Assembly (NCBI GenBank): GCA_963752285.1
Contig: CAVVXN010000005.1
Span: 2,016,001 to 2,080,000 of the forward strand
DNA length: 64,000 nucleotides
DNA from: an uncultured Planctomycetota bacterium
GTDB lineage: Bacteria; Planctomycetota; PLA2; JAEUHO01
Reading direction: 5' to 3'
A program made the translations under genes and the position numbers. The notes under the pieces were generated by a model, which saw nothing but the letters and a program-made list of their open reading frames with translations, did not search any database and was not told the DNA's origin. Positions 1,759 to 24,128 of the stretch are shown piece by piece. Numbering within the stretch: the first letter of the stretch is position 1; the number at the start of each line of letters is the position of its first letter.

Positions 1759-3684
1759 CTACTCCCCTTCCTCGATCTTCTCCTCGAGGAACTCCCCGGC
1801 GACGGGCAGGAGGCTCCGGGAACTCAGCATCCCGAGCAGGTGGCCGTCCTTCACGACCGGGAGGCTGCCGAAGCCCTGCGTGCGGATCCGGGCGATCGCC
1901 TCGAGCGTCGAGGTCTCGGGCTCGACGGTCACGAGGTCGCGGCGCATCACGTCGCGCACCGCGAGCGGCACGCCCTCCTTCGGCGGGCGCACCTCGCCGG
2001 TCAGCGTCCGCAGCAGCGCGCGGTACGAGACGAGCCCCACGAGGCGGCCCTCGTCGTCCTCCACGGGCACGTGGCGGATCTTCTCCCAGAGCATCAGGCT
2101 CGCGACGAGGTCGAGCGCGTCCGTCTCGCGCACGGTCACGAAGTCGGTGGACATGAGCTGCTCGACCTTCAGGTAGTTGCTCTTCCAGCCCCCGCCCTCG
2201 ACCAGACGGGCCAGGCTCCACTCCGCGACCGGGCTCCCCTCCCACTGGCGCGCGACCAGGCCCGCGGTGAGCGCGTTCAGCCGTTCGCCCTCCGCGCCGT
2301 GCTCCCCCATGCCGGAGAGCGAACGGAGCATCCAGGACGCGCCCGTCGTCTGGCGAGCGAGTCGCTCCTCGATCACGCCGAGGTAGGTGTCGGCGTCGCC
2401 GTCGTCCACGCCGCCGAGGCGCAGGCCCTCCCGCGCCTGCGGGAGCAGGTGCTCCCGGAGCAGGGTCTGCGCCGGGAGCGCGCGGCCGTCGAGCCACATG
2501 ATCTCGGCGCCCAGACCGAGGCGCGCGGCGGAGATGAAGTTGCTCTTCGCGTCGTCGAAGGCGATGTGCTTGGTGATGTCGGGGTGCTCGTCTACCAGCG
2601 CCGACATGAGCCCGAGCCAGAACGCCGCGTTCGCGATCTCGTCGCGCGGCGTCGGGCCCGACGGCAGCACGCGGTTCTCGATCCGGAGATGCGGCTTCCC
2701 GTCGAGCACGCCGTAGCAGGCGCGGTTCCAGCGGTAGATCGTCCCGTTGTGGAGCCGGAGCGCCTTCAGGGCCGGGACGCCGCCGCGGTCGAGCACCTCG
2801 TTCGGATCCTCCTCGGGCTCGCTGGCGATCAAGATGCGGTGACGCGAGATGTCCTCGCGGTAGATCTCGGCGACCGACTCCCGGACCCAGCCGCGCCCGA
2901 AGTCCACGCGGGGGCTCTGCTGGCGGGTGGAGAGCCCGCTGCTTCGCATGTCCACCGACTGCTGGAAGAGGGCGATCCGCGTCTCGCGCCAGAGCCGCCG
3001 CCCGAAGAGGAGGGGCGAGTTCGTCCCGACGGCGAGCACCGGTGCGGCCGCGACCTGCGCGATGTTGTAGAAGCGCGGGAACTCCTGGGGCGCGACCTGG
3101 AAGTGGACCTGGAAGCTCGCGTTGCAGCTCTCCACCATCACCGAGTCGTGGCGGAGGAGCACCTCGTCCACACCCTTGATGTGGATCTCGTAGTCGCGAC
3201 CTCGAAGCCTCGTCATGGCCTCGTTGAGCGCGCGGTACCGAGGCATCGGCGTCATGCTCTCGAGGCTCAGGTCCGACTTGCGGATCGTGGGGAGGATCCC
3301 CGTGAGCGCGAGGTCCACGCCGAGGTCGCGCGCCGCGGCCCGCCCGCGGTCGAGGAGGCTCACGAGCTGCGCCTCGAGGTGCGAGAGGCAGTTCCCGCCC
3401 CAGAGCACGGGGTCGAGGTTCATCTCGAGGTTGAAGAGGCCGACCTCGGTCGTGAAGTGCGGGTCGTCCACCTTCTCGAGGACGCGGAGCGCCGCCATCG
3501 CGGGCCGCCAGTCCTCGTCGATCAGGAAGGCCTCCTGCTCGGCGCCGATGCGACGCACGCCGGTCTCGAAGCGGCCCTCGGCGATCATCCGCTCGAGCGC
3601 CTGGAGGTCGCGCAGCAGCCGGCGCGTGAACGCGCGGAGCTCGCTGCCCTCGTCCTCGAGATGAGAGACCTGGGATTCGCCCAT
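1759..3684 (-). CDS. Glutamate-cysteine ligase (GCS2/YbdK-like carboxylate-amine ligase) fused to a C-terminal CBS pair
   Basis: IGAEQE, FTTEV..FNLE, SFQVH, NSPLLFG and LRIENRVL motifs; C-terminal CBS repeats (KIRHVPVED..GRLVGLVS; FGSLPVVKDGHLLGML). Confidence 0.85.
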   Translation of the reverse strand: MGESQVSHLEDEGSELRAFTRRLLRDLQALERMIAEGRFETGVRRIGAEQEAFLIDEDWRPAMAALRVLEKVDDPHFTTEVGLFNLEMNLDPVLWGGNCLSHLEAQLVSLLDRGRAAARDLGVDLALTGILPTIRKSDLSLESMTPMPRYRALNEAMTRLRGRDYEIHIKGVDEVLLRHDSVMVESCNASFQVHFQVAPQEFPRFYNIAQVAAAPVLAVGTNSPLLFGRRLWRETRIALFQQSVDMRSSGLSTRQQSPRVDFGRGWVRESVAEIYREDISRHRILIASEPEEDPNEVLDRGGVPALKALRLHNGTIYRWNRACYGVLDGKPHLRIENRVLPSGPTPRDEIANAAFWLGLMSALVDEHPDITKHIAFDDAKSNFISAARLGLGAEIMWLDGRALPAQTLLREHLLPQAREGLRLGGVDDGDADTYLGVIEERLARQTTGASWMLRSLSGMGEHGAEGERLNALTAGLVARQWEGSPVAEWSLARLVEGGGWKSNYLKVEQLMSTDFVTVRETDALDLVASLMLWEKIRHVPVEDDEGRLVGLVSYRALLRTLTGEVRPPKEGVPLAVRDVMRRDLVTVEPETSTLEAIARIRTQGFGSLPVVKDGHLLGMLSSRSLLPVAGEFLEEKIEEGE

Positions 3685-3735
3685 GTGCGCGGGGATCCTA
3701 GCAGGGGAGAACCGAGCTCGGGTAGCGCCAGGGTG

Positions 3736-4953
3736 TCAGCCGGCGAGGAGGTGAAGGTCCGTGCCGACCCGGTCGGCCAGGCGGATGGTGGTCTCGAGGT
3801 CGGGGTGGCGCACGATCAGCCAGCCGTCGGAGAGGAGGGTCTGCTTCCAGTTGCGCCGCGGCGCGCCGACGGGAAGGAGGTCCATGGCGACCAGCGCGTC
3901 GCCGAGGTCGTGCCGGAGGCGGTCCAGGCCCTCGATCCGGAGGATCCGCCCCTGGCCCCGGGCGCGCTTCACCACGATCGCCGCGTTGTACGGACGCGTG
4001 ACGGGACGCTCGAGGCGCCCCGTGAGGACCGCCTCGGCCCACGCCGCGTACACGTCGTAGTCGGCCGCGTAGTTCATGATGTCGGTGCTCCGCGCGCCGG
4101 CCGGTCGGGCCCCGATCTCGCCGAACACCGCCTCGCCCTCGGGCGTGAGGAACCACTCCATGTGCGTGAAGCCGTCCGGGAAGCCGAGCGCCTGGAGCAC
4201 CGCCCGTCCCATCTCGACGCCGCCGGCGAGGCGCGGAGCGTCGACGTCGCGGAGCGCGATGGTCTGCGCCGAGATCCACTCGTTCGTGCGCGCGACCAGC
4301 GGCCGCGGCCGGTACCAGGAGACGTTCGAGAAGCCGATCCGCCCCCCGGCCGAGATCGCGTCGAAGGTGTACTCCTCCCCTTCCACGAACTCCTCGACGC
4401 TCACCTCCTCGACGTGACCCATCCTCTCGAGGACGGTGTCGAGCGCCTCGGCGTCGCCGACTCGGTGCGTGTCGGCCGAGCCCGCGCCGGCGATCGGCTT
4501 GACGATGAGGGGGTAGCCGATCTCCTCGGCCGCCTCGCGAACCTCTCGGACGGTGGTCGCGCGCCGGTGGCGCGGCGTGCGTACGCCGGCGTCGTCCAGG
4601 ACGCGCTTCATGGCCTCCTTGTCCCGGAAGGGGAGCGCGCCCGCGAGGTCGAGACCGGGCACGCCGAGCGCCTCCCGGACACGCGCGGCGAGGAGCACCC
4701 CGGGCTCCCAGAGGCACTCGACCCGGTCCACGCCCCGCGCGGCGGGCCACCTGCCAACCTCCTCCACGACCGCGGCCTCGTCGAAGAGGCTTGGCACGGG
4801 GAGCCACGCGGCGAGCGCCTCGCGGGCGGCGGGCGCGAGGCCCGCGGGGGAGCCCTCCCCCACCCCGAGCACCGCGGCGCCCCGCCGGGCGAGCGCGCGC
4901 GTGAAGTAGCCGAGCTCGAACGGGTATCCGGGACTCAGGACGAGGACCTTCAC
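3736..4953 (-). CDS. ATP-grasp domain protein (L-amino-acid-ligase/carboxylase-like), paralog A
   Basis: FRDKEAMK, GYPLIVKP, EEFVEGEE, THMEWF and EIGARP motifs; 405 aa. Confidence 0.85.
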   Translation of the reverse strand: MKVLVLSPGYPFELGYFTRALARRGAAVLGVGEGSPAGLAPAAREALAAWLPVPSLFDEAAVVEEVGRWPAARGVDRVECLWEPGVLLAARVREALGVPGLDLAGALPFRDKEAMKRVLDDAGVRTPRHRRATTVREVREAAEEIGYPLIVKPIAGAGSADTHRVGDAEALDTVLERMGHVEEVSVEEFVEGEEYTFDAISAGGRIGFSNVSWYRPRPLVARTNEWISAQTIALRDVDAPRLAGGVEMGRAVLQALGFPDGFTHMEWFLTPEGEAVFGEIGARPAGARSTDIMNYAADYDVYAAWAEAVLTGRLERPVTRPYNAAIVVKRARGQGRILRIEGLDRLRHDLGDALVAMDLLPVGAPRRNWKQTLLSDGWLIVRHPDLETTIRLADRVGTDLHLLAG

Positions 4954-5000
4954 GGCCGCGCGCCTCCCACGCGGCGCAGATCATCCCAAACTCGATTGCG

Positions 5001-6221
5001 CTACGCGAGGTCCACCCTCACGAGGGAGACGAGGCGACGGAGAGCCTCCTCGACCACGGCCGTCTCCTCGTGGCGGACGATCACGTACCCCTCGCCCTCG
5101 TACGACCCGGTCGGGGTCTCGCCCCTCCCGGGGAGGCGGGCCTCCACCACGAGGGCGCCGAGCTCCCGCTCCGCCTCCTCGAGGCCCCGGATCGCCGCGA
5201 CCCGGCCCGCGCCCTGGCCGCGGAGGTACGCGGCGCCGGCGGCGTAGCGCCGCGCGGGCGCCTCGAACGTCTTGAACACGACCACGCGGGCCCAGGCGCG
5301 GTAGAAGTCGAAGTCGTTCGCGTAGGAGATGAGCGTCGAGAACTGGGCCCCCGGCGGACGGGCGGCGACCTCGCTCACGGCGACGCTCCCGTCGGGGCGG
5401 CGGAACCACTCCAGGTGCGTGACGCCCGTCTCCATGCCGAGGACGTCGAGCGCCGCGAAGGCGACCCGACGGATGTCGTCGTACCGAGGGTCGTCCACCT
5501 CGCGCGGGACCACGACGACCCACTGGATCCACGGGTTCTGGAGCACCACGAGCGGCGACGGGTGATACCGGCTGATCGAGTGCCACACGGGCCGGCCGTC
5601 GATCGACACCGTGTCGAAGGAGTGCTCCTCGCCCTCGACGAACTCCTCGAGGAGGACCTCGCGTCCCGGGGCGGCGGGGTGCGCCGCGAGGGCGCGGCGG
5701 AGCCCGTCCGCGTCATCGACCCGGAACGTGGCGCGCGCGCCCGCGCCCGCCGGCGGCTTCACGACGAGCGGGAAGCCCACCTCGGAGGCGACGCAAAGCG
5801 CCTCGTCGGCGGACGCGGCGAGCCCGTGTCGCGCGCAGGGGATCCCGGCGGCGCGAAGCGCGGACTTCATGAGCGCCTTGTCGCGAAAACGCGTCGCCGC
5901 CTCGACCCGGAGGCCCGGAAGGCCCAGCGACTCGCGGGTCCGCGCGAGCGGCACCTGGAGCTGCTCGAGCGTCCCCACCAGGCAGGTGACGGGCCCGACC
6001 CGGGCGGCGAGGCGCTCCGTCGCTCCGGCGATCGCCCCCGGGTCGAGCACGTCGTCGAGCCGTTCGTGCCCGTCGAGCCGGGCGCGGAGCGCGGCGGGGA
6101 TCCGCTCCAACGGATCCTGCGTCACGAGCGAGAGCCGGCATCCCTCGAGCGCCGCGACGGCGTCCACGAAGCGGCGGGTGGCGTCCATCAGGAACGGCGC
6201 GACGAAGACGACGTGGGTCAT
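5001..6221 (-). CDS. ATP-grasp domain protein, paralog B
   Basis: Start MTHVVFVAP (ATG 6219-6221); FRDKALMK, GFPLVVKP, EEFVEGEE, THLEWF and EVAARPPG motifs. Confidence 0.85.
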   Translation of the reverse strand: MTHVVFVAPFLMDATRRFVDAVAALEGCRLSLVTQDPLERIPAALRARLDGHERLDDVLDPGAIAGATERLAARVGPVTCLVGTLEQLQVPLARTRESLGLPGLRVEAATRFRDKALMKSALRAAGIPCARHGLAASADEALCVASEVGFPLVVKPPAGAGARATFRVDDADGLRRALAAHPAAPGREVLLEEFVEGEEHSFDTVSIDGRPVWHSISRYHPSPLVVLQNPWIQWVVVVPREVDDPRYDDIRRVAFAALDVLGMETGVTHLEWFRRPDGSVAVSEVAARPPGAQFSTLISYANDFDFYRAWARVVVFKTFEAPARRYAAGAAYLRGQGAGRVAAIRGLEEAERELGALVVEARLPGRGETPTGSYEGEGYVIVRHEETAVVEEALRRLVSLVRVDLA

Positions 6222-6327: not shown

Positions 6328-7587
6328 ATGAAGGACGTCGTCACCGCGATCCTCGGCGGGGGGCAGGGCGCGCGCCTCTGGCCCCTGACCCGCCACCGGG
6401 CCAAGCCGGCGGTGCCCGTCGGCGGCAAGTTCCGCCTGATCGACGTCCCGATCTCGAACAGTCTCCACGCCGGCGCGAACCGGATCTACGTGCTGACGCA
6501 GTTCAACAGCGCGAGCCTCCACCGGCACATCGCCCAGTCGTACCGGTTCGACATGTTCTCGGGCGGGTTCGTGGACCTCCTGGCGGCGGAGCAGGGGCTC
6601 GGGGACCGGACCTGGTACCAGGGCACGGCGGACGCGATCCGCCAGAACCTGGGTCGTCTCACGAGCGAGACCACGCGCGACGTCCTCGTCCTGTCCGGGG
6701 ACCACCTCTACCTGATGGACCTCGCGGCGTTCGTCCGGCGTCACCGGGAGTGCGAGGCCGACATCACGATCGCCGTGTCGCCGGTCCCGCGCGCCGAGGC
6801 CCACGCCTTCGGGATCATGCAGCTCGACGCGCGCGGGCGGATCGTCGAGTTCGTGGAGAAGCCGAAGGAGGAGTCGGCGAAGGAGGCGCTCGTACCCGCC
6901 CCGGCGACGCGGGAGGCGCTCGGCGGGGCCGTCCCGCCCGACCACCTGTTGGCGAGCATGGGCATCTACCTGTTCCGGCGCGAGGTGCTCGAGCAGCTGC
7001 TCACGGGAACGGACGGCGCCGACTTCGGCCATCACGTCATCCCCGCCGCCATCGGGTGCCGCGCGGTCTACGCGTTCGCCCACCCCGGCTACTGGCGAGA
7101 CATCGGGACGATCTCCGCGTTCTACGAGGCGAGCCTCGACCTCACGCGCCCCCTGCCGCCCCTGAACCTCTACAGCGCCGAGCGGCCGATCTTCACGCAC
7201 TCGCGGTTCCTGCCGGGCACCAAGATCAACCGGTGCCAGGTCGAGCAGTCGATCCTCTGCGAGGGGAGCATCCTCACGGCGAGCCTGGTGCGGCGCTCGA
7301 TCGTCGGGATCCGGGCGATCGTGCGGGAGGACACCGAGATCGAGTCGAGCATCGTGATGGGAGCCCACGCGTACTCGGCCGAACAGCCGGGGACGCCGCC
7401 CCTGGGGATCGGCCGAGGCTGCACCATCCGGAAGGCGATCGTGGACCTCGGCGCGTACGTGGGCGACGGGTCCCGCCTCGTGAACACGCGGGGCGTGGAG
7501 GAGGAAGACGGCGAGAACCACTGCATCCGCGGTGGCGTCATCGTGGTCCCGCGCGGCGCACGCATCCCCGCCGGCACCGAGATCTGA
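6328..7587 (+). CDS. glgC: Glucose-1-phosphate adenylyltransferase
   Basis: ILGGGQGARLWPLT..RAKPAVP, VLTQFNSASL, WYQGTADA, LSGDHLY, FVEKP, ASMGIY and YWRDIGT motifs; C-terminal beta-helix. Confidence 0.95.
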   Translation: MKDVVTAILGGGQGARLWPLTRHRAKPAVPVGGKFRLIDVPISNSLHAGANRIYVLTQFNSASLHRHIAQSYRFDMFSGGFVDLLAAEQGLGDRTWYQGTADAIRQNLGRLTSETTRDVLVLSGDHLYLMDLAAFVRRHRECEADITIAVSPVPRAEAHAFGIMQLDARGRIVEFVEKPKEESAKEALVPAPATREALGGAVPPDHLLASMGIYLFRREVLEQLLTGTDGADFGHHVIPAAIGCRAVYAFAHPGYWRDIGTISAFYEASLDLTRPLPPLNLYSAERPIFTHSRFLPGTKINRCQVEQSILCEGSILTASLVRRSIVGIRAIVREDTEIESSIVMGAHAYSAEQPGTPPLGIGRGCTIRKAIVDLGAYVGDGSRLVNTRGVEEEDGENHCIRGGVIVVPRGARIPAGTEI

Positions 7588-7594
7588 CGTGCCG

Positions 7595-9079
7595 ATGGGC
7601 CGATCCTCCGTTCCGTTGCGCATCGGGATGGTCTCGGCCGAGATGGCGCCCCTCGCGAAGACGGGCGGCCTCGGCGACGTCGCCGCGGCCCTCGCCCGCT
7701 ACCTCCACGCCGACGGCCAGGACGTGCGGCCGTTCCTGCCGCTCTACGCGACGCTCCGCGTCGATGAGAAGGACCTGGTCCCGGTCTCGTTCCTCCAGGA
7801 CGTGCCCCTGCGGATGGGCGGTCACGCGCTCTCGTTCTCGGTCTACACGACCCCGCTCCCGGTCGGGGACGGGGGCGCCGACCGCGTGCCGGTCTACCTC
7901 GTCTCCTGCCCGCCGCTCTACGCCCGGCGCTCGTACTACCCGGAGGACGGCGACGAGCACCTCCGATTCGCGTTCCTCTCCCGCGCCGCGATCGAGTGCT
8001 GCCAGCGGATGGGGTGGGCGCCCGACGTCTTCCACGTGCACGACTGGCACGCGGCGCTCGTCCCGCTCTACCTCCGGACCGTCTACGCGTGGGACCGCCT
8101 CTTCGCGGCCACACGCACGGTCCTCACGATCCACAACCTCGCGTATCAGGGGGTGTTCGGGGCCCACGTGCTGGCGGACCTCGACCTGGGGATGCAGGCG
8201 GAGCTCTTCCACCAGGACCATCTCCGTGCGGGACGAATCGGCTTCCTCGAGACCGGGATCCTCTACGCGGACGTGATCACCACCGTGAGCGAGACGTACG
8301 CGCGCGAGGTCCAGACGCCCGAGATGGGGATGGGACTCGACGGCCTGCTCCGCGCGCGCGGCGCCGGCGTGGTCGGGATCCCGAACGGGATCGACACGCA
8401 GGAGTGGTCGCCCGAGACCGACCCGCTGATCCCCGTGCGCTACGGCGCCGACGACCTCGCCGGGAAGCGCAGGGACCGCGCGCTGCTGCTCGAGGAGATG
8501 AACCTCCTTGCGGATCCGCGTGGACCGGTGCTCGGGATCGTCTCGCGCCTCGTGTCGCAGAAGGGCTTCGAGCTGCTGTTCGACGTGCTCCCCGCGCTCC
8601 TCGCGAGCCAGGACGTCCGCGTGGCCGTGCTCGGCTCGGGCGAGTCGCGCTACGAGACGTACTTCGCGACCCTCGCCCGCGCGTTCCCCGGTCGTGCCGC
8701 GTGGCGCGGCGGGTACGACAACGCCCTCGCGCACCGGATCGAGGCCGGCGCGGACCTCTTCCTCATGCCGTCGCGCTTCGAGCCGTGCGGCCTGAACCAG
8801 ATGTACAGCCTCCGCTACGGCACCCCGCCCGTCGTGCGGAAGACGGGTGGGCTCGCGGACACCGTGGAGCACTTCGACCCGGCGACGGGACAGGGCACGG
8901 GCTTCGTCTTCGAGCACTTCACGTCGGCCGGCCTCACGTGGGCGCTCGGCCAGGCGCTCCAGGCGTGGCGCCAGCCGAAGGCGTGGCGACGCCTCGTCCG
9001 AAACGGCATGGCGAAGGACTTCTCCTGGGAGGCGCAGATCCGCCGCTACGTGGACCTCTACCGCCGTCTCTCGGGCTGA
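7595..9079 (+). CDS. glgA: Glycogen synthase (GT5)
   Basis: KTGGLGDV, HVHDWH, TIHNLAYQG, MPSRFEPCGLNQM and KTGGLADT motifs. Confidence 0.95.
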   Translation: MGRSSVPLRIGMVSAEMAPLAKTGGLGDVAAALARYLHADGQDVRPFLPLYATLRVDEKDLVPVSFLQDVPLRMGGHALSFSVYTTPLPVGDGGADRVPVYLVSCPPLYARRSYYPEDGDEHLRFAFLSRAAIECCQRMGWAPDVFHVHDWHAALVPLYLRTVYAWDRLFAATRTVLTIHNLAYQGVFGAHVLADLDLGMQAELFHQDHLRAGRIGFLETGILYADVITTVSETYAREVQTPEMGMGLDGLLRARGAGVVGIPNGIDTQEWSPETDPLIPVRYGADDLAGKRRDRALLLEEMNLLADPRGPVLGIVSRLVSQKGFELLFDVLPALLASQDVRVAVLGSGESRYETYFATLARAFPGRAAWRGGYDNALAHRIEAGADLFLMPSRFEPCGLNQMYSLRYGTPPVVRKTGGLADTVEHFDPATGQGTGFVFEHFTSAGLTWALGQALQAWRQPKAWRRLVRNGMAKDFSWEAQIRRYVDLYRRLSG

Positions 9080-9133
9080 GCCGGGTCGCGGCGAGTCGCA
9101 CCCGTCTCGGCCCGCGCGCCACGGGGAGGAGCA

Positions 9134-9435
9134 GGGAGAGCGTGAACGTCCCGTCGAGGACGAGGATCGTTCCGGGCCCGCTCCCGTCGTCGGCGGCCTG
9201 GATCGCGTCCGTGAGCTCGGCGACCGTCGCCACGGTCGCCGTCGCCCCGGTCGGGGCCACGAGGGCCTCGCGGTCGCAGGACGGCAAAGGGTCGGTGGGG
9301 ACCGGCGGATCCGAGAGGTCCTGGGACGAGGCGCCCCCGCCCCCGCACGCGGCGTGGAGGACGGGGACCGCGGGAAGCACACGGCGACGGCGCGCGACGC
9401 GCCCCGGGACCACGCGTCCCGCCCCCCATGTCCAT
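9134..9435 (-). pseudogene. Truncated lipoprotein fragment resembling the N-terminus of a beta-helix (pectate-lyase-like) protein
   Basis: Lipobox-like LHAAC-GGGG, then TVATVAELTDAIQAADDGSGPGTILVLDGTFTL; protein-like sequence then ends and the frame runs into the glgA 3' end. Confidence 0.45.
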
Positions 9436-9580
9436 CGAGTGTCGCTCACGATCACGTTCCGGGCCGCCCCGGGTTCGCGGACCCATCAGAAGTCCCGGTC
9501 GGGGCCTCTCTCGACGGCGGAGGCCGTCGCGAGCGGTGCGCCGCCGGGTCGCGCGCGCACGCCCTCGATACCCTGAGGCC

Positions 9581-10882: not shown

Positions 10883-10889
10883 CGGCGGG

Positions 10890-12658: not shown

Positions 12659-12693
12659 GCGGAAGGGATACGGGCTCCGCGGTCTCCCGACCC

Positions 12694-12732
12694 GTGCCGG
12701 AAGTCATGGAAGCGCACCATGACCTCCGGCAC
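12694..12732. promoter_or_regulatory. 16-bp inverted repeat, putative operator of the NarL-type regulator
   Basis: GTGCCGGAAGTCATGG-aagcgca-CCATGACCTCCGGCAC (1 mismatch) between the divergent kinase and TPR genes. Confidence 0.6.
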
Positions 12733-12763
12733 GCGCGCGAGGACGGCTTCTCTAGCAGGATCG

Positions 12764-13634: not shown

Positions 13635-13651
13635 CGGCCGAGGGGCGACCC

Positions 13652-15493: not shown

Positions 15494-15637
15494 CGGTCCT
15501 CCCCGGCGGCGGAGACCCTCCGCCCCCTTCGAACGCTACCCAGGACGCGAACCCCGCGCACGCCTCGAGGCTCGGGGCCCCGGTTGCGGTCGGCAGGCCC
15601 CGCTCCTCCCGGGACGCTGACCGGGGAGGCGACGACC

Positions 15638-16594
15638 TTGGACGTACCGCTCTGGGCATGGATCGCGTTCGGGCTCACCGTGCTCGTTCTCCTGGGGCTC
15701 GATCTGCTCGCCCACCGGGGCGAGAAGGAGGAGTCGTGGCCGCGCGCCGTCACGTGGAGCGGGATCTGGGTGGGCACGGGGCTCCTCTTCGGGGGGTTCG
15801 TCTGGGCCCTCTTGGGCGGCGCCGCGGCGGGCGACTACCTCGCGGCCTGGCTCATCGAGAACTCGCTGAGCATCGACAACCTCTTCGTGTTCCTGATCAT
15901 CTTCCGAAGCCTCGCCGTGCCCCGGAGGTACCAGGCGGACGTCCTCCTCTGGGGCATCTTCGGCGCGGTCGTCTTCCGCGCGGGCTTCATCGTCCTCGGC
16001 GCGGCGGCGCTCGACCGCTGGGCGTGGGTGTCGTACCTGCTCGGTGGGTTCCTCCTGATCGCGGCGTGGCGGGTCGCTCGCGAGGACCCCGAACCGAAGG
16101 AGGAGAACGCGACGGTGCGGTGGCTGTCCAAGCACCTGCCCGTCACGCACGAGATCCACGGCAAGCACTTCGTGGCCCGCGTCGGCGGCCGGCGCGTCCT
16201 CACGCCGCTCCTGGTCGCACTGATCGCCCTCGAGCTGTCGGACGTGCTGTTCGCCGTAGACTCCGTGCCCGCCGCCCTGTCGGTGACCCGCGTCCGGTTC
16301 CTCGTGTACACGTCGAACATCTTCGCGATCCTCGGGCTCCGCGCGATGTACATCGTGCTCGCACGAAGCATCGGCCGCCTGCGCTACCTCCACTACGGCC
16401 TCGCCCTCGTGCTCGCCTTCGCGGCGTTCAAGATGATCGCCGATAGGTGGGTCCACGTCTCGGGCCTCCAGTCGGTCGCCCTCATCGTCGCCATCATCGG
16501 CGCGGCGGCGTGGGCGAGCCTCCGCGCGGACCGGGCCGAGGCGCGGGGGGCGCGCGCCGCGCCCGTGGGCCCCGACGCGTCGGACCCGGAGTAG
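15638..16594 (+). CDS. TerC/Alx-family metal homeostasis membrane protein
   Basis: TTG start after GGGGAGG; ENSLSIDNLFVF, DVLFAVDSVPA and SNIFAILGLRAMY motifs. Confidence 0.92.
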   Translation: MDVPLWAWIAFGLTVLVLLGLDLLAHRGEKEESWPRAVTWSGIWVGTGLLFGGFVWALLGGAAAGDYLAAWLIENSLSIDNLFVFLIIFRSLAVPRRYQADVLLWGIFGAVVFRAGFIVLGAAALDRWAWVSYLLGGFLLIAAWRVAREDPEPKEENATVRWLSKHLPVTHEIHGKHFVARVGGRRVLTPLLVALIALELSDVLFAVDSVPAALSVTRVRFLVYTSNIFAILGLRAMYIVLARSIGRLRYLHYGLALVLAFAAFKMIADRWVHVSGLQSVALIVAIIGAAAWASLRADRAEARGARAAPVGPDASDPE

Positions 16595-16603
16595 CCGAGT
16601 ACC

Positions 16604-18622
16604 TCAGCGGGAGCGGCGCCCCGATTTCAGGTAGCGGTCGAACCAGCGGACGATGTGGCGGAGGCGCTCGATCCGGCGGTCCGTGCGGCCCGTCCGGGAG
16701 AGGCCGTGCGGCTCGTCGGGGAAGCGGACCATCTCGGTGGGGACGCCGAGGCGCTTCAACGCGACGAAGATCTGCTCGCCCTGCTCGATGGCGCAACGCA
16801 GGTCCTGCTCGCTGTGGATCACGAGCGTCGGCGTCTTGGCGTTCCCGATCGACTTCATGGGCGACCGGTCCCAGTACGCCTCGACCGCCTCCCACGGGGC
16901 CTGGTCCCCGACCTCCGCCTGGAAGATCCAGTTGAAGTCGCTCGAACCCCACATGCTGAGCATGTTGCTCACGCTGCGCTGGGTCACCGCCGCGCCAAAC
17001 CGGTCCGTATGCCCGATGATCCAGTTCGTCATGTAGCCGCCATAGCTCCCGCCCGTCACGCCCAGGCGGTTCGCGTCCACGTACGGGAGCTTCGCGACGC
17101 GCTCGGCGAACGCCATGACGTCGTCGTAGTCCACGGTCCCCCACGCGCCCCAGGTCGCCTTCGCGTGCGCCTCGCCGTAGCCGCGTCCGCCTCGCGGGTT
17201 CGAGAACGCCACGACGTAGCCCTGGGCGGCGAGGAGCTGGAACTCGTGCATGAAGATCCGCCCGTACTGGACGAGCGGACCGCCGTGGATCTCGACGATG
17301 GCGGCGTGCTTCTTCTTCGTCCTCGCACCCGGCGGACGGAGGACCCATCCCTGGAGCCGGTGGCCCCCCCCGCCCTCGAACCACAGTTCCTCCGTGCGAC
17401 CGAGGTCCACTCGCCGCAGCCAGGAGTTCGTCCGGGTGAGGACGCGCGTGTCGCCGCTCTCGAGGTCCCTCGTGCGGATCTGGCCCGGGTCGTCCATCTC
17501 GCCGAAGACGTACGTGACCCGACGCTCCTCCGGGTCGAGATCGTAGGCGCCGACCACGCCCGGGTCCCCGACGACGGTCCGAAGGTCGCTCCCGTCCACG
17601 GCCACGGAGAGGAGCTCCGTGTTCCCCTCGCGCGTCACCTGGAAGAAGATACGCGAACCGTCCTTCGACCACCGCGGCGGCGGGAAATCGGGCTCGCCGA
17701 CGTCGTTGATCGTCCACGCGGAGACGTGGACGTCGTAGGCCGCCGTGAGGTTCTGGGCGGGCCCCCTCCCGTCGAAGGGGACGACCCACAGCGCGTCGTT
17801 CCGCCACCACTGGTTCTTCCCCTCGATCCCCACGTACGCGACCCGCTTCCCGTCCGGCGAGACGGCGGGCAGCGTCTTCGCACCGACCGGCGTCGGGATC
17901 CGCCGGGGCTTGCCGCCGCGCGCGGGGATCGCGAAGAGGTCGATCTCCTCCGGGTCCAGATCCGGCTCGTCCGTGCGGTTCGAGACGTACACGAGGTGCT
18001 TCCCGTCGGGCGTGAACGCCGGCGCGAGCTCGTCGTGCACGGGGTCGTCCGTCAACGCCTGCGCACGTCCCGTCCTCGTGTCCACGAGCCACAGGTGCCA
18101 GCGCTCCTTCGGCAAGTGGCCCGCGCCGTCGAGCTTGAAGAACGTGCGCGTGACGTGCCGCGCCACGACGCCGAGCCTCCTCGCGCGCTCGTCCTTGTCG
18201 CGCTGGAGCTCCTCGGCGTCCTTCCTCCGGAAGACGATCACGAGGTGTCGTCCGTCGGGAGACCACTCGAGCGCCTGGAACGCGCCCTTCAGGTCCGTCA
18301 GCGGCCGCGCCTCGCCCCCGCCGAACGGGAGGAGGTGGACCTGGGGCTGCTTCTCGTCCTGCCGGTTCGAGACAAACGCGATCGTGCCCCCGTCGGGCGA
18401 CCACCGCGGCATCGTGTCGACGTGGTCGCCGTAGGTGAACCGCGCGGGGCGCCCGCCTTTCGTCGGGACGACCCAGAGGTCCTGGTATTTCTTCTCGCTC
18501 TCCCGGTCCACGCGCTCCACGGCGTAGACGACGTGCCGACCGTCGGCAGAGAGCCGGCTCCCCGCGATCCGTTCCAGTCGGTACAGGTCCTCGGCCGAGA
18601 TCCGGCGCTTCTTCGTGGGCAT
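16604..18622 (-). CDS. S9 family peptidase (dipeptidyl aminopeptidase/acylaminoacyl peptidase)
   Basis: PD40-like WSPDG propeller repeats; IHGGP; GGSYGG nucleophile; HSEQDLRC (Asp); EPHGLSR (His). Confidence 0.93.
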   Translation of the reverse strand: MPTKKRRISAEDLYRLERIAGSRLSADGRHVVYAVERVDRESEKKYQDLWVVPTKGGRPARFTYGDHVDTMPRWSPDGGTIAFVSNRQDEKQPQVHLLPFGGGEARPLTDLKGAFQALEWSPDGRHLVIVFRRKDAEELQRDKDERARRLGVVARHVTRTFFKLDGAGHLPKERWHLWLVDTRTGRAQALTDDPVHDELAPAFTPDGKHLVYVSNRTDEPDLDPEEIDLFAIPARGGKPRRIPTPVGAKTLPAVSPDGKRVAYVGIEGKNQWWRNDALWVVPFDGRGPAQNLTAAYDVHVSAWTINDVGEPDFPPPRWSKDGSRIFFQVTREGNTELLSVAVDGSDLRTVVGDPGVVGAYDLDPEERRVTYVFGEMDDPGQIRTRDLESGDTRVLTRTNSWLRRVDLGRTEELWFEGGGGHRLQGWVLRPPGARTKKKHAAIVEIHGGPLVQYGRIFMHEFQLLAAQGYVVAFSNPRGGRGYGEAHAKATWGAWGTVDYDDVMAFAERVAKLPYVDANRLGVTGGSYGGYMTNWIIGHTDRFGAAVTQRSVSNMLSMWGSSDFNWIFQAEVGDQAPWEAVEAYWDRSPMKSIGNAKTPTLVIHSEQDLRCAIEQGEQIFVALKRLGVPTEMVRFPDEPHGLSRTGRTDRRIERLRHIVRWFDRYLKSGRRSR

Positions 18623-18673
18623 CGACGCTCCTCGCACGGGGAGCGCGGAGCGTAGCGCGACGCGCCCCCGGCG

Positions 18674-19435
18674 TCACCCGTGCGGCGCGAGGGTCTCGAG
18701 CTCGGCGAGGTACTTCGGGAGCATCGCCCGCCACGTCGTCCAGTCGTGGCGCCACTCGACGCCCCAGGGATCGACTCGGTTGGGGATCCCTCGGCTCCCG
18801 AGGACGTGGGCCATCCGCCACGACTCGGACGGGTCCTCCCACTCGCCTTCGCCGGTCGCCAGGATCAGGAACCGCTCGCGGAGCCGCGAGAGTTGGGCGG
18901 ACGCTCCCAGGTTGGGGAGGAAGTGCATCGGCGAGGAGAAGTAGAGGTCTTGCCCGTGGTCGGCCGGGTCCAGCCACTTCGACGGGTCGTACGTGCCGCT
19001 CATGCCGATCGCGAGGCAGAACAAGTCCGGGTGGCGGCAGAGCGTGGCGACCGCGTTGAACGCCCCGATCGACGCGCCCGCCACGACGATCGAGATGTCG
19101 GGCGTGCGACAGTCCTCACGGATCCACGGGACCAGCTCTCCCGCCACGAACCGGTCGAACGCATTCTGGACGTGCGGGTACCAGCCCGGCGGCCGTTCGC
19201 GCCGGCGTACGAGCGCCTGGCCGGCGAGGCTGTCGCACGAGTAGACCTTGACCCGCCCCGCGTCGATCAGCGGCGCGAGGGCCTGGATCATCAGGAACCG
19301 CTCGCACTCCTCGGCGTCGCCGCCCGCGGTCGGGAAGAGGAGAACCGGCACCCCGAACGTGCCCCACCGGCAGCAGCCGACCTCGCTTGAGAGATGCTGG
19401 GAGGCGATCTGGATCGAAAGCTTCGTGTCGCTCAC
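18674..19435 (-). CDS. Alpha/beta-hydrolase (putative esterase)
   Basis: GTG start overlaps the upstream stop; PVLLFPTAGG, GASIG nucleophile elbow, MSGTYD and HDWTTW motifs. Confidence 0.85.
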   Translation of the reverse strand: MSDTKLSIQIASQHLSSEVGCCRWGTFGVPVLLFPTAGGDAEECERFLMIQALAPLIDAGRVKVYSCDSLAGQALVRRRERPPGWYPHVQNAFDRFVAGELVPWIREDCRTPDISIVVAGASIGAFNAVATLCRHPDLFCLAIGMSGTYDPSKWLDPADHGQDLYFSSPMHFLPNLGASAQLSRLRERFLILATGEGEWEDPSESWRMAHVLGSRGIPNRVDPWGVEWRHDWTTWRAMLPKYLAELETLAPHG

Positions 19436-20673
19436 GAGGGGCGGCCCTCCTCTTCGCGCCAGCGCTGGATGAGCGCCCAGAAGCGGTCCGTGAACTCGTC
19501 GATCTCGTGGCGGGGAAACAAGGCGGCGACCTTCTGGTGCACGGCGTCCTTCGCGAACGCCGCCCCGAACGCCTCCCACGCGACCTCGTCCAGGTGGGCG
19601 AGGTGCCGTGCGCAGAAGGACTCGAACGCGTCCACGTCGAGCCGGGCGCGGGCGATCGCCGCGTACGCGGCGAGCTTCTCGCGCGCGGGGCGGTCCTCCC
19701 GGGCGACCTCGAAGTACGGCTCCCAGTCGGTGGCCTTCTGCATGCGACGGCGCGTCGCGGCCGCGAAGACCGCCCACCGGACCTTCGCCTTCACGAGCCA
19801 CGGAAAGTGGTAGTGGAGGGACGTCACCTGCGAGTCGGGACACGCGTTCGCGAAGTCGATCGGGTAGAAGACGCCGTCCTGTCGGAGGGCCTCGCAGGAG
19901 TTGAAGTCCCAGCCGAAGAAGGTGTTGATCGTGAGCGTCATGTCCTCGAGAAGGGATCGCTCGTCGGGCGTCACGAAGTCCTTGTCGAGCGTGTACCGCT
20001 CGTGGAGCGGCGCGGCGGGGTCGTAGCGCATCACCCGCGTCTGCGGGCCTACCGCGAGGCAGCGCACGAACAGGTCGTGGGGCTCGACCGCGCGCTGGAG
20101 GTGCATCACGCGCTTCCCGCTCTGCTCGTAGGCGGCGCGCAGTCCGGCCTCGTCGTCGATGCGACTCACGCCGACCCAGGCGCCGCCGTCGTACGGCTTC
20201 ATGTAGAGCGGGTATCCGACCTTCTGTCCGATCTCGCCCAGGTCGAAGAGACGCGCGTAGCGGCGCAGCGTCACCTCGAGGTCGTCGCGGGGCTCGTAGT
20301 CCTTCGGCGGGAGCATCCAGGTCGCCGGGACCGGCAGGCCGAGGCGCATCATGGCCACGTACGACGTGTGCTTCTCCATGGACTGGATCGCCCACGGGTT
20401 GTTGAGCACGTACGTGTCGTTCATGAGAACGATCTTCTTGATCCACTCGCGGCTCGTGTGATACCAGTGCGTCAGTCGGTCGAGCACGACGGCGTACCGA
20501 CAGGGCTGGCGCAGGTCGAACGGCTCGATCGTGACGCGTTCGACCTCGAACCGAATGCGCTCGCCGCCCACCGGGATCTCGAGGTCGAGCCGCCGGACGA
20601 TCTCCTCGAAGAGGAGCGGCCAGCAGATGTCGGCCCCGAGCGACAGACCGATCCGCCGCGTGATCGTGCCCAC
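19432..20673 (-). CDS. RimK/glutathione-synthetase-like ATP-grasp protein
   Basis: VLNNPW, EKHTSYVAMMRLGLPVP, GYPLYMKPYDGGAW, FNSCE and IDFANACPD motifs. Confidence 0.85.
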   Translation of the reverse strand: MGTITRRIGLSLGADICWPLLFEEIVRRLDLEIPVGGERIRFEVERVTIEPFDLRQPCRYAVVLDRLTHWYHTSREWIKKIVLMNDTYVLNNPWAIQSMEKHTSYVAMMRLGLPVPATWMLPPKDYEPRDDLEVTLRRYARLFDLGEIGQKVGYPLYMKPYDGGAWVGVSRIDDEAGLRAAYEQSGKRVMHLQRAVEPHDLFVRCLAVGPQTRVMRYDPAAPLHERYTLDKDFVTPDERSLLEDMTLTINTFFGWDFNSCEALRQDGVFYPIDFANACPDSQVTSLHYHFPWLVKAKVRWAVFAAATRRRMQKATDWEPYFEVAREDRPAREKLAAYAAIARARLDVDAFESFCARHLAHLDEVAWEAFGAAFAKDAVHQKVAALFPRHEIDEFTDRFWALIQRWREEEGRPS

Positions 20674-20699
20674 GAGTCCCTCCGCGCCGTCCCGAGCGC

Positions 20700-21839
20700 T
20701 CAATCGTAGACGAGGCCCAGTGGCCCGGGGAAGAGCCAGCTCAGGCTCTCGCGCAGGCGGTCGCGCCAGTTCTCCCAGTTGTGACCGTCCCGCGCCTCGA
20801 CGTACCGGACGTCCATGGCGGTCTGCTGCAGGAGGGAGACCAGGGAGCGGTTCTCGTAGATCAGCGCCTCGTACGTGCCGCACGTGACGAAGATGCGTTC
20901 GGAGAAGCGCCCGGGTGCGGCGCGGAACCCGTTCACGAACCGCACGATCGGGTCGAAGGCCGGCGGCCGGGCGCTCCGCCCGATGTCGGTGAAGGCGAAC
21001 GACCCCGACTGGAGCAGGAGCCGCCCCACGACGCCCGGATGTCGCCACGCGGCGTACAGGGCGGCCACCGCGCCGAGGCTTGCGCCCATGAGCCCGAGGG
21101 AGGCGCGGCCGGGACGGACGGGGTAGCGCGAGGAGAGGAGCGGAACGAGCTCCTCCACGACGTGGCGGGCGTGGTCGGGGTTCGCCGCGTACTCCACCAT
21201 CCGGTCGGCCGGACGGCAGAGCGCCACGACCATCGGCGCGACCTCGTTGCGGTAGATCAGGTTGTCGAGGACGATCCGGAGCCCCGCGTACTCGACGTAC
21301 TCGGGCCCGTCGAACACCACGAGCAGCGGGTAACGCCGCGACCTCCGCAGCCGGCGCGGGAGGTAGACGTGGACCTCGCGCTGCCCGTTCAGGGAGGGGG
21401 CGGGCACCATGATCTTCTCGACGCGCCCGCCTTCGACCGACGGGTCCGGTCGGATCCACGACGGCGTCTCGTAGCCGCTCCCCTGGCAGACCGAGTTCGC
21501 GCCGAAGGGGTCGCGCGCGAGGAGCGGGTTCAGAGGATCCCGGATCCACGTCGTCTCGGCGCCCCGGACGACCTCGAGCTTGTACTCGATCCGCGACCCG
21601 GGCGGAACGTCCACGACGAGGTACCAGAGCGTCGTGCTCGCCACCCGGAGGAAGGGCTGCGAGGTCGGGAGGCCGTACACGAAGTGACGGAGGCGGACGT
21701 CGTCGGCGTCGCCACGGTAGAGGAACGTGATCGACGGCCCTTCCACGATCGGCACCGCGCGGTCCGCGAGGAAGCGGTCTACCGCCGCCTCGTCGAGGGG
21801 GCCCTCGCCCTCCAGGAAGTCGAGGATCGCGACGGTCAT
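20700..21839 (-). CDS. Enterochelin-esterase-like alpha/beta-hydrolase with an N-terminal Ig-like (CBM48-like) domain
   Basis: N-terminal ITFLYRG..RIEYKL..IRDPLNP..FGANS; VYLP..YPLLVVFDG; GASLG elbow; GHNWENW. Confidence 0.85.
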   Translation of the reverse strand: MTVAILDFLEGEGPLDEAAVDRFLADRAVPIVEGPSITFLYRGDADDVRLRHFVYGLPTSQPFLRVASTTLWYLVVDVPPGSRIEYKLEVVRGAETTWIRDPLNPLLARDPFGANSVCQGSGYETPSWIRPDPSVEGGRVEKIMVPAPSLNGQREVHVYLPRRLRRSRRYPLLVVFDGPEYVEYAGLRIVLDNLIYRNEVAPMVVALCRPADRMVEYAANPDHARHVVEELVPLLSSRYPVRPGRASLGLMGASLGAVAALYAAWRHPGVVGRLLLQSGSFAFTDIGRSARPPAFDPIVRFVNGFRAAPGRFSERIFVTCGTYEALIYENRSLVSLLQQTAMDVRYVEARDGHNWENWRDRLRESLSWLFPGPLGLVYD

Positions 21840-22804
21840 CGCCCGCGCGCGTCCTCGAGCGTCTCCTCCAAGGCGTCCTCGAGCGTGCCGTCGAGGCCGA
21901 GGCGCCAGGCGCCGCCCGCCGCGCTCGTGATGCGCTCGCCGTCGATCCGCACGCCGCACCCGGGGTCGAGGACGATCCCCCGCTCGGGAAGGAGGCGGCG
22001 CGCGAGCGTCTCGACGCGTGTCCGGTCCTCGATCGCGAGTCGCGCGCTCGCGTCCGGGAGCAGCACGACGCCCGAGACGAGCGCGAGGCCCCGGCCCATC
22101 ACCTCGGCGTGGCCCTCGCCCTGCGGGGGGCGGTCGTGGAAGAGGAGGATCCGCTCGGCGAGGGCCATCGCGCCGCCGGACCACGCGAAGCAAGGGCGCG
22201 TCGCCAGCGCGTCGGCGAGCCCGAAGAGGCGGAGCCGGTTCCTGAGGATCGGCACGTGTCCGCCCGCGACGAGCACCGCGGCCGCGCCGTCGATCACGCG
22301 TCGCATCTGCTCCGCCGGCACCCGGATCGCGTCGCGCTCGCCCGGCCGCCACCGATCGGCGAACTCGGTCTCGATCGCCTCCGCCCGCTCGAGGTGCCCT
22401 CGGTCGAGCGCACGCACCATCTCGAGGGCGTCGGAGAGCTCCCCCGCGAGCACACGGGACGGCCCCCCCGCGACCCGGAGCTCCGCCCGCGCCACGAGGA
22501 GGTGCCCGAGCCGGGTCCGGTACGCGGCCTGGGACGCGCGGAGGAGCGCACGCCGGGCCCGATACGCCTCGAGCAGCTCCCGGTCCCGGGCGAAGGCGAT
22601 CTCCGCGGCGTGGTGCAGGCGGAGGTTCTCGACGGGGCGTCCCACGGCGCGGTCCAGGCGCTCGGTCTCGCCCTCGCGATCCTCCCAGCCGGCCGTGATC
22701 GCCGCCAGGGGCCCCGCGACGCCGGCGGCGGCGAGCGCCGCGGGGAGCGTCGGGTCCGAACGCTGTGGGCCGAGCAGGACGACCGTGGGGGGTACCGCAT
22801 GCAC
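21836..22804 (-). CDS. Peptidase S51 (peptidase E/cyanophycinase-like, GATase-1 fold)
   Basis: AAITAGW, LVAGGH and AWSGGAMAL nucleophile-elbow motifs; 4-bp overlap with the downstream esterase. Confidence 0.65.
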   Translation of the reverse strand: MHAVPPTVVLLGPQRSDPTLPAALAAAGVAGPLAAITAGWEDREGETERLDRAVGRPVENLRLHHAAEIAFARDRELLEAYRARRALLRASQAAYRTRLGHLLVARAELRVAGGPSRVLAGELSDALEMVRALDRGHLERAEAIETEFADRWRPGERDAIRVPAEQMRRVIDGAAAVLVAGGHVPILRNRLRLFGLADALATRPCFAWSGGAMALAERILLFHDRPPQGEGHAEVMGRGLALVSGVVLLPDASARLAIEDRTRVETLARRLLPERGIVLDPGCGVRIDGERITSAAGGAWRLGLDGTLEDALEETLEDARGR

Positions 22805-22907
22805 GGGCGAGATGGTAGATCACGCTTCCCCCGCGGGAAGGGACGCTCTCGGCGGCCCGGCTCGTGGCCTCGGCCAGGCGCCTCGCGGGGTGGACGGGAG
22901 GCCCGCC

Positions 22908-24128
22908 GTGCACGTCGTCTTCGTGGAGCCGCGCTTTCCCTCGAACCAGCGCGAGTTCGTGCGCGGGCTCGCGTCCGTGGGCGCGCGCGTGACCGGGATC
23001 GGCGAGGCGCCGGTCGAGCACCTGGACCCGGAGCTCAAGGGCTGGCTCTCGGACTACGTGCGCGTGGGGTCGGTCTGCCACGAGGACGAGATGCTCGAGG
23101 CCGTGCGCCGGATCCAGGCGGCGGGCTGGGTGGACCGCCTCGAGGCTACGGTCGAGGCGCACATCCTTCCCGTGGCGCGCGTGCGCGAGGCCACGAAGAT
23201 CCCGGGAACGTCCGTTCGCACGGCGTATCTCTGTCGCGACAAGCCCGCGATGAAGGAAGCGCTCCGCGAGGCCGGGGTCGCCACCGCGCGGTCCACCGGC
23301 GCCGCCTCCTCGGACGACGTGCGCCGCTTCGCGAAGGAGGTCGGCTACCCGCTCATCTTGAAGCCGCCGAGCGCCGCGGGGGCCGCGGGGACGATCCGCG
23401 TGGACGACGAAGGAGCGCTCACGCGCGCGCTCGCCGAGACCGGCGTGGACCGCGGCCAAACGGTCGCGGTCGAGGAGTTCGTCGAGGGCCACGAGGCGTT
23501 CTACGACACGCTCGCAATCGACGGCCACGTAGGGCACGACTTCATCTCGCACTACTACCCCGGCGTGCTCGAGGCGATGCGCACGCGATGGATCTCTCCG
23601 CAGATCGTGGTGACGAACCGCATGGACGCACCGGCGTACCAGGAGGTCCGCGCGCTCGGGCTTCGCGTGATCGAGGCGCTCGGCATCGGCACCTCGGCGA
23701 CCCACATGGAGTGGTTCTTCGGACCGAAGGGCCTCAAGTTCTCCGAGATCGGGTGCCGCCCGCCGGGCGTCGGGCAGTGGGACCTCTACTGCGCGGCGAA
23801 CGAGATGGACCTGTATCGCGAGTGGGCCATGGCGGTCGTCCACGGCCGGACCGACGCCCGGCCCACCCGTCGCTACGCGGCGGGCATGATCGCGCTCCGA
23901 CCCGACCGGGACGGGCGGATCGTGGGCTACGACGGCGCGGAGCGGGTGTTCGAGCAGATCCGCGACCACGTGATCCACGCCCACCTGCCGGCCCCCGGCA
24001 CCCCCACGCAGCCGGTGGAGGCGGGATACAAGGCGAACGCCTGGATCCAGGTGCGCCACCCCGACTACGACGAGGTCCGCCGGATCCTCGACTTCGTGGG
24101 CGAGAACCTGAAGGTCCGCGCCGCGTAG
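22908..24128 (+). CDS. ATP-grasp domain protein, paralog C
   Basis: GTG start after GGGAGG; CRDKPAMK, GYPLILKP, EEFVEGHE, THMEWF and EIGCRPPG motifs. Confidence 0.85.
   Translation: MHVVFVEPRFPSNQREFVRGLASVGARVTGIGEAPVEHLDPELKGWLSDYVRVGSVCHEDEMLEAVRRIQAAGWVDRLEATVEAHILPVARVREATKIPGTSVRTAYLCRDKPAMKEALREAGVATARSTGAASSDDVRRFAKEVGYPLILKPPSAAGAAGTIRVDDEGALTRALAETGVDRGQTVAVEEFVEGHEAFYDTLAIDGHVGHDFISHYYPGVLEAMRTRWISPQIVVTNRMDAPAYQEVRALGLRVIEALGIGTSATHMEWFFGPKGLKFSEIGCRPPGVGQWDLYCAANEMDLYREWAMAVVHGRTDARPTRRYAAGMIALRPDRDGRIVGYDGAERVFEQIRDHVIHAHLPAPGTPTQPVEAGYKANAWIQVRHPDYDEVRRILDFVGENLKVRAA

Follow-up and report, generated by a model that had tools for sequence, protein, structure and literature searches.

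The window analysed here is a stretch of 64,000 nucleotides (contig CAVVXN010000005.1, positions 2,016,001 to 2,080,000) from an uncultured Planctomycetota bacterium, and the system in question is a set of ten genes within it that encode four ATP-grasp enzymes, a GCS2-type carboxylate-amine ligase with CBS domains (GCS2-CBS), two esterases, an S51-like protein and the glucan-forming enzymes GlgC and GlgA. Gene calls were checked by six-frame translation with codon-position GC, and all the genes that an earlier reading of the bare DNA (the sequence-only reading) had named in two blocks are present as open frames. The features, in window coordinates, are:

1759..3684, minus strand: GCS2-CBS, GCS2-type carboxylate-amine ligase with a CBS pair, 641 amino acids (Pfam GCS2 and two CBS); a loosely linked member
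3736..4953, minus strand: ATP-grasp paralog A, L-amino-acid-ligase type, 405 amino acids (nearest solved chains BL00235, RizA and BacD)
5001..6221, minus strand: ATP-grasp paralog B, L-amino-acid-ligase type, 406 amino acids (Pfam ATP-grasp; a clade of its own)
6328..7587, plus strand: glgC, ADP-glucose pyrophosphorylase (PRK02862 and TIGR02091 scores; the genome's sole close copy)
7595..9079, plus strand: glgA, glycogen synthase of a ligase-linked clade (TIGR02095; the genome's sole close copy)
9080..18673, no strand: insert between glgA and esterase B, outside the system (Pfam; the junction differs in relatives)
16604..18622, minus strand: S9 peptidase, part of the insert (in 1 of 80 loci)
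18674..19435, minus strand: esterase B, single-domain serine alpha/beta-hydrolase, 253 amino acids (Pfam Esterase PF00756, 47 bits)
19432..20673, minus strand: RimK-fold ATP-grasp enzyme, 413 amino acids (predicted-structure comparison; without a Pfam match)
20700..21839, minus strand: esterase A, Ig-like domain and serine alpha/beta-hydrolase of Fes/CE1 architecture, 379 amino acids (predicted-structure comparison)
21836..22804, minus strand: S51-like protein (peptidase E/cyanophycinase fold) with a long insertion (Pfam S51 matches in the family)
22908..24128, plus strand: ATP-grasp paralog C, L-amino-acid-ligase type, 406 amino acids (nearest solved chains RizA, BacD and BL00235)

In block 1, GCS2-CBS and paralogs A and B lie on the minus strand, divergent from glgC-glgA; in block 2 the genes for the S51-like protein, esterase A, the RimK-fold enzyme and esterase B lie on the minus strand, divergent from paralog C. 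Two junctions of block 2 are 4-nt overlaps, at one of which the start of esterase B lies over the upstream stop codon. Every cluster gene is single-copy in the genome, which holds branching enzyme (glgB), phosphorylase (glgP), debranching and malQ-like genes elsewhere. Inspection of the N-termini by eye showed no signal peptide in any cluster member, and a promoter/terminator scan gave nothing exceeding shuffled controls.

Conservation and layering of the cluster

Scanned with the RimK-fold protein, GTDB species yielded at least 576 matching stretches, and the locus counts below refer to the best 80 of these (62-73% identity, viewed over up to 10 kb, many of the loci being short), whose record titles span eight phyla (Acidobacteriota, Planctomycetota, Gemmatimonadota, Actinomycetota, Ca. 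Eisenbacteria, Pseudomonadota, Myxococcota and Chloroflexota). The RimK-fold gene is accompanied by esterase A in 70 loci, the S51-like protein in 60 and esterase B in 52, then by paralogs C (38), A (34) and B (33), by glgA (38) and glgC (19), and by GCS2-CBS (10). The cluster is a real, widespread gene set, and it is layered, with the RimK-fold ligase, the two serine esterases and the S51-like protein as its core. Conserved linkage of ligases, hydrolases and glg genes, as the sequence-only reading had proposed, is thus borne out by neighbourhood counts and by the genome counts given below, and an absence of linkage is clearly not what we observe.

In three loci (L046, L049 and L051) all ten genes are contiguous in the gene order of the window. 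Since these relatives hold both blocks side by side in the same order, the association of the blocks exceeds chance, and the two blocks, correctly tied together before, are halves of one conserved cluster that is split in the window by a 9.6-kb insert, the S9 peptidase included. At the convergent junction of glgA and esterase B the insert genes of the window are absent from relatives or replaced by other inserts, and where the cluster breaks, glgA remains with the paralog genes, as in the window. The S9 peptidase had been listed as a member; its gene is real, but it recurs in a single one of the 80 loci, at 24-28% identity, and was rejected.

Among 100 loci (some duplicates), the other recurrent neighbours include phosphorylase (12), branching enzyme (11), debranching enzyme (5), two GH57 groups (5 and 4) and GH77 (4), together with an AstE/AspA hydrolase in five loci, often after GCS2-CBS. 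A BesA/PGM1-like ATP-grasp gene of ~518 amino acids adjoins paralog A in three loci (L044, 16089-17645; L082; L085), where it adds another ligase to the cluster, and scores 187 bits against a BesA cut-off of 750. The RimK-fold protein belongs to an 8,601-member Atlas cluster; it had no match in plasmid records, where three distant trio-like proteins were matched. Long proteins among the best 150 representatives included no real ligase-esterase fusion, those seen looking like frameshift or assembly joins.

Whole genomes gave a similar picture. In 201 genomes of the window's phylum (identity thresholds of at least 42% for the RimK-fold protein, 57% for paralog C and 51% for GlgA), the set is common, and the long RimK-fold protein and paralog C have an identical distribution (35 genomes), which includes genomes where the two are not linked. 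GCS2-CBS is present in 34 of these 35 and also in 18 of the 166 genomes without the system, so that the membership claimed for it holds as a loose one. In the window's own family (f1), six of eight sampled members carry GCS2-CBS and have no match to paralogs A-C, the RimK-fold protein or GlgA; GCS2-CBS therefore has some function independent of the cluster. A second sample, made up of whole genomes for those 50 of the best 80 loci whose contigs are longest (several genomes being common to both samples), holds paralogs of the trio A-C in 45, GCS2-CBS in 37 and some GlgA in 48; all 34 genomes with a near full-length GlgA at 49% identity or more hold a trio member, and the five without the trio hold only distant GlgA. 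As kin are not independent and the samples overlap, these co-occurrence counts are descriptive and not statistics.

Predicted enzymes of the cluster

Paralogs A, B and C (the trio) are 36-40% identical to one another, are 405-406 amino acids long, and all carry RDKxxMK, EEFVEG, THxEWF and ExxxRP, confirming the family that the sequence-only reading had seen across both blocks; the genome holds no further copy of this kind. Their nearest solved chains by profile are BL00235, RizA and BacD (paralog A, E 3e-27 to 5e-16; paralog C, E 6e-23 to 3e-13). A conserved ATP/metal/carboxylate set (K, K, E, H-x-E, E, R) is invariant in the homolog alignments of all three, including the catalytic-type residues K112, K152, H264, E266, E279 and R283 of paralog A (38/38 homologs) and H269, E271, E284 and R288 of paralog B (44/44). 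In a FastTree phylogeny of 65 rows, with 14 sampled homologs per paralog, the three clades (support 99 for A, 100 for B and 100 for C) group together apart from a distant single-copy family.

The trio thus shares with the L-amino acid ligases (BacD/YwfE, RizA, BL00235), whose general mechanism proceeds via a phosphorylated carboxylate according to PMC9486568, its length class and the H-x-E, E and R residues. It differs from them in its R-P-P-G signature and in forming three fixed orthologous clades that travel with esterases and GlgA, and it falls far below both curated models (BacD, 29-40 bits against a cut-off of 850; DdaF, 24-29 bits against 840). At the column aligned to the glutamate of the BacD motif T-E-T-S-H, which we take to bind the alpha-amine, the paralogs have S (41/42, A), Q (44/44, B) and S (42/45, C); RizA is also without Glu there in the profile alignment. 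The GCS2 domain of GCS2-CBS scores 28.6 bits in Pfam against a cut-off of 21 and keeps E49, E51, E80, E87, H194, R334, E336 and R338 in 12/12 homologs, and no solved chain was found for it by phmmer. CBS domains are adenylate sensors.

The model of the fourth ATP-grasp enzyme (predicted local distance difference test, pLDDT, 92.8) shows an ATP-grasp fold over residues 4-307, followed by a helical C-terminal extension of ~100 residues. It aligns with RimK at Z 19.9 (root-mean-square deviation 2.8, 264 residues aligned), with ArgX (Z 19.1), synapsin (Z 19.1 and 18.9) and ITPK1 (Z 18.9) all within 1 Z of RimK, and the top Foldseek matches are D-Ala ligases and RimK. K101, K159, R204, C260, E261, D273, N276 and C278 are invariant (89/89 homologs). 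Residues 4-307 therefore resemble the RimK/LysX/ArgX ligases in fold, whereas the metal-binding segment D273-F-A-N276 (the E-x-N segment of RimK carries Glu), the invariant cysteines, the helical extension and the esterase partners set the enzyme apart. No Pfam match at E 0.01 and no RimK/LysX model match was obtained, only weak D-Ala ligase matches in NCBIfam, and with its differing architecture membership of the RimK family was rejected. Its relationship to the trio is remote (HHalign 95.8%, 113 columns).

The model of esterase A (pLDDT 94.4) is closest to Fes (Z 33.8) and to the CBM48-CE1 feruloyl esterases (Z 27.9), sharing with both the two-domain architecture and the Ser-His-acid triad (S254 70/70, H353 69/70 and E324 68/70 homologs) and differing from them in sequence (21% and 19% identity, respectively). 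With a PRK10439 score of 91 bits against a cut-off of 222 and no siderophore or xylan genes among the recurrent neighbours of cluster loci, identity with Fes was rejected. Of the Ig/CBM48-like esterase proposed earlier, the Ig domain and the esterase stand, while CBM48 (10/70 members) fits the N-terminal domain less well than Enterochelin_N (67/70), CBM20 being matched in 26/70. PMC9069913 names W543, K578 and W590 as key binding residues of CBM20, and the Ig domain matches a glucoamylase starch-binding domain at E 0.004, E85-Y86-K87 and W98 aligning with E576-K578 and W590, and position 53 lying outside the aligned stretch; K87 is kept in 70/70 homologs, W98 in 37/70 and W/F53 in 67/70. Esterase B retains the GxSxG Ser and the HDW His in 57/57 homologs.

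The claim of an S51 hydrolase holds for the family, which matches Pfam S51 in 56/62 alignment members, and not for the copy in the window, which has no Pfam S51 match at E 0.05. That copy retains Ser209 and has Asp251 where 50/63 rows (two duplicates) hold His, 13/63 rows being without it; because Asp replaces the catalytic His, the protein may be inactive or non-catalytic. The family profile matches PepE-type chains (E 0.017-0.021). As in the cyanophycin system (CphA, with CphB of S51), predicted ATP-grasp ligases stand beside an S51-fold hydrolase with a possible reserve role, but the ligases here are single ATP-grasp proteins of 405-413 amino acids, scoring 34-43 bits against cut-offs of 850-877, unlike the two-domain CphA of ~870 amino acids; the S51-like protein is nearer PepE, and the esterases and GlgA have no counterpart there. 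With no CphA present, identity with that system was rejected on cut-offs and architecture.

The glucan link and its GlgA clade

The tie to glgC-glgA that the sequence-only reading had drawn is conserved, but it is narrower than proposed. Of the 46 loci of at least 19 kb, 31 have a trio gene, and 27 of these contain a glucan gene, compared to one of the 15 without the trio, the chance level being 70 of 4538 same-sized windows of this genome (1.5%). The glucan link belongs to the trio and a dedicated GlgA clade, not to the RimK-fold/esterase core, which lies mostly away from glucan genes.

GlgA is found in 141 of the 201 phylum genomes, and in 25 it is at least 51% identical to the window's copy; all 25 are among the 35 system genomes, none are in the other 166, and every one of these copies is on the same contig as, and within ~13 kb of, a trio gene. 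A quick maximum-likelihood search on 65 rows gathered by similarity to the window's GlgA (19 of them outgroup) placed 46 rows, the window's included, in one clade that spans several phyla (Shimodaira-Hasegawa-like approximate likelihood ratio test 100). Eight of the 25 genomes have more than one GlgA match, four of them with a full-length second copy of 33-45% identity elsewhere, and the clade GlgA is kept beside an ordinary glgA in G056, G062 and G080, whose second copies lie outside the clade in the quick tree, and in G111, G155, G177 and G230. Compared with 18 outside rows, 22 positions are diagnostic of the clade (among them C105, Q137, W166, D167 and F170), and 17 of these fall in residues 43-217, in the N-terminal half, which presumably has an acceptor-binding role.

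The window's GlgA passes TIGR02095 (528.6 bits, cut-off 328.45) and its KTGGL / R..K / E motifs are intact and match E. coli glycogen synthase; glgC scores 514.6 bits for PRK02862 (cut-off 537) and 410 for TIGR02091 (cut-off 424.9). The enzyme thus resembles that of bacterial GlgC-GlgA glycogen synthesis, with the other glycogen genes elsewhere in the genome, and differs in its clade, which crosses phyla and is limited to genomes with the trio, and in being encoded beside ligases and not in a glg operon. Non-clade GlgA is also a neighbour of trio genes at five loci, L194 and four from Gemmatimonadota (L034, L085, L095 and L107), so the link between GlgA and the trio arose more than once. At L194 (13284-17350, genome G086), the gene immediately upstream of paralog A and two B copies encodes a GlgA well removed from the clade (28% identity) with its catalytic motifs intact, a separate recruitment of glgA.

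Proposed pathway and alternatives

The gene set hints at an undescribed attachment of amino acids to a storage sugar, or at a companion reserve compound. The chemistry that follows is our inference from the findings above on the cluster members and their order, on folds and preserved catalytic-type residues, and on joint inheritance. Our tentative first choice is a cytoplasmic build-and-remove pathway in which alpha-1,4-glucan would be acylated with amino acids or short peptides and the acyl groups removed by the esterases. GlgC and GlgA would make the glucan or malto-oligosaccharide acceptor, and the three paralogs would activate carboxylates as acyl-phosphates and assemble a short peptide, one step each; its attachment to a hydroxyl group of the sugar would be catalysed by a ligase itself or pass via an acyl-serine of an esterase acting as transacylase. 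Removal of the peptide would fall to esterase B and to esterase A, the latter directed by its Ig domain; the S51-like protein would trim the peptide where active, and GCS2-CBS would be an energy-sensing accessory ligase. The older ligase and esterase core would acylate another small acceptor, the version with the trio and GlgA being its glucan-specialised form. Glucan acylation is favoured because it accounts for esterases as constant partners as well as for the restriction of the GlgA clade to genomes with the trio: the constant hydrolases are esterases and not peptidases, and the nearest folds of esterase A are those of Fes, which acts on amino-acid lactones, or of the sugar-ester-cleaving CE1 enzymes. 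A wider form of this proposal, that bacteria from numerous phyla of soil and sediment esterify an alpha-glucan with amino acids or peptides, using a dedicated glycogen synthase and three specialised ATP-grasp ligases, possibly in complex, with Fes-like esterases removing the groups, is a slightly less secure conjecture.

Several observations weigh against glucan acylation. The RimK-fold family occurs in 30 of 251 Actinomycetota genomes (a tally that includes four unpublished genomes, G273, G319, G329 and G381, which enter into nothing else stated here), and the 17 long-form actinobacterial loci, most of which are an esterase A-esterase B-ligase triad, include a glucan gene in two and trio genes in one. 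The distant single-copy ligase family (23-32% identity to the trio; names from Peptoclostridium, Pararhizobium, Streptococcus and Pasteurellaceae) has an esterase-B homolog adjacent in 44 of 45 loci of at least 9 kb, and this pair stands with glucan genes in only one of the 45. With core and distant pair mostly away from them, the basic chemistry needs no adjacent glucan gene. The clade GlgA is absent from 10 of the 35 system genomes and is the sole GlgA in many, the window's included, so that normal glycogen production would fit as well; a GlgA clade could also result if a block of stress genes had been transferred horizontally as a unit, the GlgA tree is a quick one with a small outgroup, and the co-occurrence counts overstate independence because the genomes are related. 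In esterase A, W98 is kept in little more than half of the homologs and the Ig domain fits Enterochelin_N best, PMC8040265 describes CE1-appended CBM48 domains that failed to bind starch, and the nearest solved relatives of the trio form amide bonds between free amino acids.

Since core and distant loci are mostly without glucan genes and trio loci have them, ligase and esterase are an old unit, and the trio with GlgA is a derived, glucan-linked layer. A location of the distant Firmicutes ligase and esterase genes within glg operons was considered and failed on the 45 loci. The sole glucan-linked case among them (L275, 7989-16352) is a Pasteurellaceae-type ligase-esterase-esterase triad that converges on glgP-glgA-glgC. 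A shorter RimK-fold clade (~310-340 amino acids, ~30% identity; L124-L128, L245 and L246) pairs with esterase B, a YbdK-type GCS2 ligase, an M29 peptidase or a CP-ATP-grasp/GSP-synthase-like protein, and one such locus also holds glgB and glgC; these loci are a sister system.

A serious contender, though one to which we give well under an even chance, is that the cluster makes a free non-ribosomal peptide or N-acyl peptide (a nitrogen reserve, compatible solute or stress metabolite) that is recycled by the hydrolases, the tie to glycogen reflecting shared regulation and joint transfer. It explains the glucan-independent core, the distant pair and the kinship of the trio with L-amino acid ligases better than glucan acylation does, and it is consistent with the RimK/ArgX fold of the fourth ligase and with variant loci that add YbdK-type GCS2, CP-ATP-grasp-like, M29, AstE/AspA and BesA-like genes. 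Senoo and co-workers are said to have found, in 2010, in-vitro dipeptide ligase activity in streptococcal and Actinobacillus ATP-grasp proteins, and the distant ligase family has members from Streptococcus and Pasteurellaceae. A free peptide leaves unexplained, however, why the constant partners are esterases, why a trio-confined GlgA clade (25/35 compared to 0/166 genomes) is kept beside an ordinary glgA, and why, in the one member with a peptidase fold, a fifth of rows no longer have the His, the window's copy included.

It is unlikely that the system is instead a protein-modification switch, in which the ligases would tail (RimK-style) or bind GlgA or GlgC and the hydrolases would reverse this, controlling glycogen synthesis. 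Such a switch would suit the RimK match of the fourth ligase, the clade-specific residues of the linked GlgA, the adenylate-sensing CBS domains and the residues of paralog A that are constant where GlgA is linked and less conserved in other loci (R222, 1.00 vs 0.33; M293, 1.00 vs 0.44; 33 vs 9 rows), differences that are confounded by kinship; the RimK-fold gene, however, is the part least tied to glgA, and amide-linked tails would not be removable by esterases. That the RimK-fold enzyme belongs to the ITPK1/synapsin branch and acts as a kinase on small molecules or glucan, the core phosphorylating a polyol or sugar, is very improbable, since despite the closeness of ITPK1 and synapsin in Z and the Asp of its metal segment, its partners are carboxylesterase-type hydrolases and not phosphatases, related loci add amide ligases and peptidases, and D-Ala ligases and RimK lead the Foldseek matches.

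Full-text searches, with most subscription literature outside their coverage, found no paper on this cluster, and no described pathway is known that combines ATP-grasp amide/ester ligases and Fes/CE1-type esterases with a separate lineage of glycogen synthase. Iyer and co-workers (2009, Mol Biosyst 5:1636) reportedly grouped ATP-grasp and COOH-NH2 ligases with peptidases as predicted peptide synthesis and turnover systems. If glucan acylation is correct, the decorated glucan would be a new storage chemistry that ties carbon and nitrogen reserves together covalently, and a reversible modification of glycogen not described in bacteria; if a free peptide is made, the product would still be an unknown reserve or stress compound from four or five new ligases. 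The novelty of a new kind of pathway rests on glucan acylation; with a free peptide as product, the cluster would be a variation on ligase-hydrolase systems for peptides. Its layering brings the question within reach of tests on a few small soluble enzymes.

The remaining observations concern neighbouring genes of the window. The insert contains genes for NDH-2, a LuxR regulator with a histidine kinase, a TPR protein, a 613-amino-acid protein and TerC, besides the S9 peptidase. The 613-amino-acid protein (13652-15493, minus strand) has a signal-like N-terminus and a HELHH motif, with no Pfam match and a weak flagellinolysin HExxH match. Directly after paralog C (24229-28050, plus strand) lies a gene for a 1273-amino-acid protein with ~10 carboxypeptidase-regulatory-like repeats, which is not among the recurrent neighbours. 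It is followed (28061-32535, plus strand) by a TPR and adenylate/guanylate cyclase gene that overlaps the start of a gene for an 803-amino-acid protein with a STY4199-like HEPN domain (Pfam 156 bits), a likely membrane segment and a C-terminal domain; the two are possibly a conflict or signalling pair. An ordinary membrane H+-translocating pyrophosphatase (Pfam H_PPase, 849 bits) is encoded at 53235-55352 on the minus strand.

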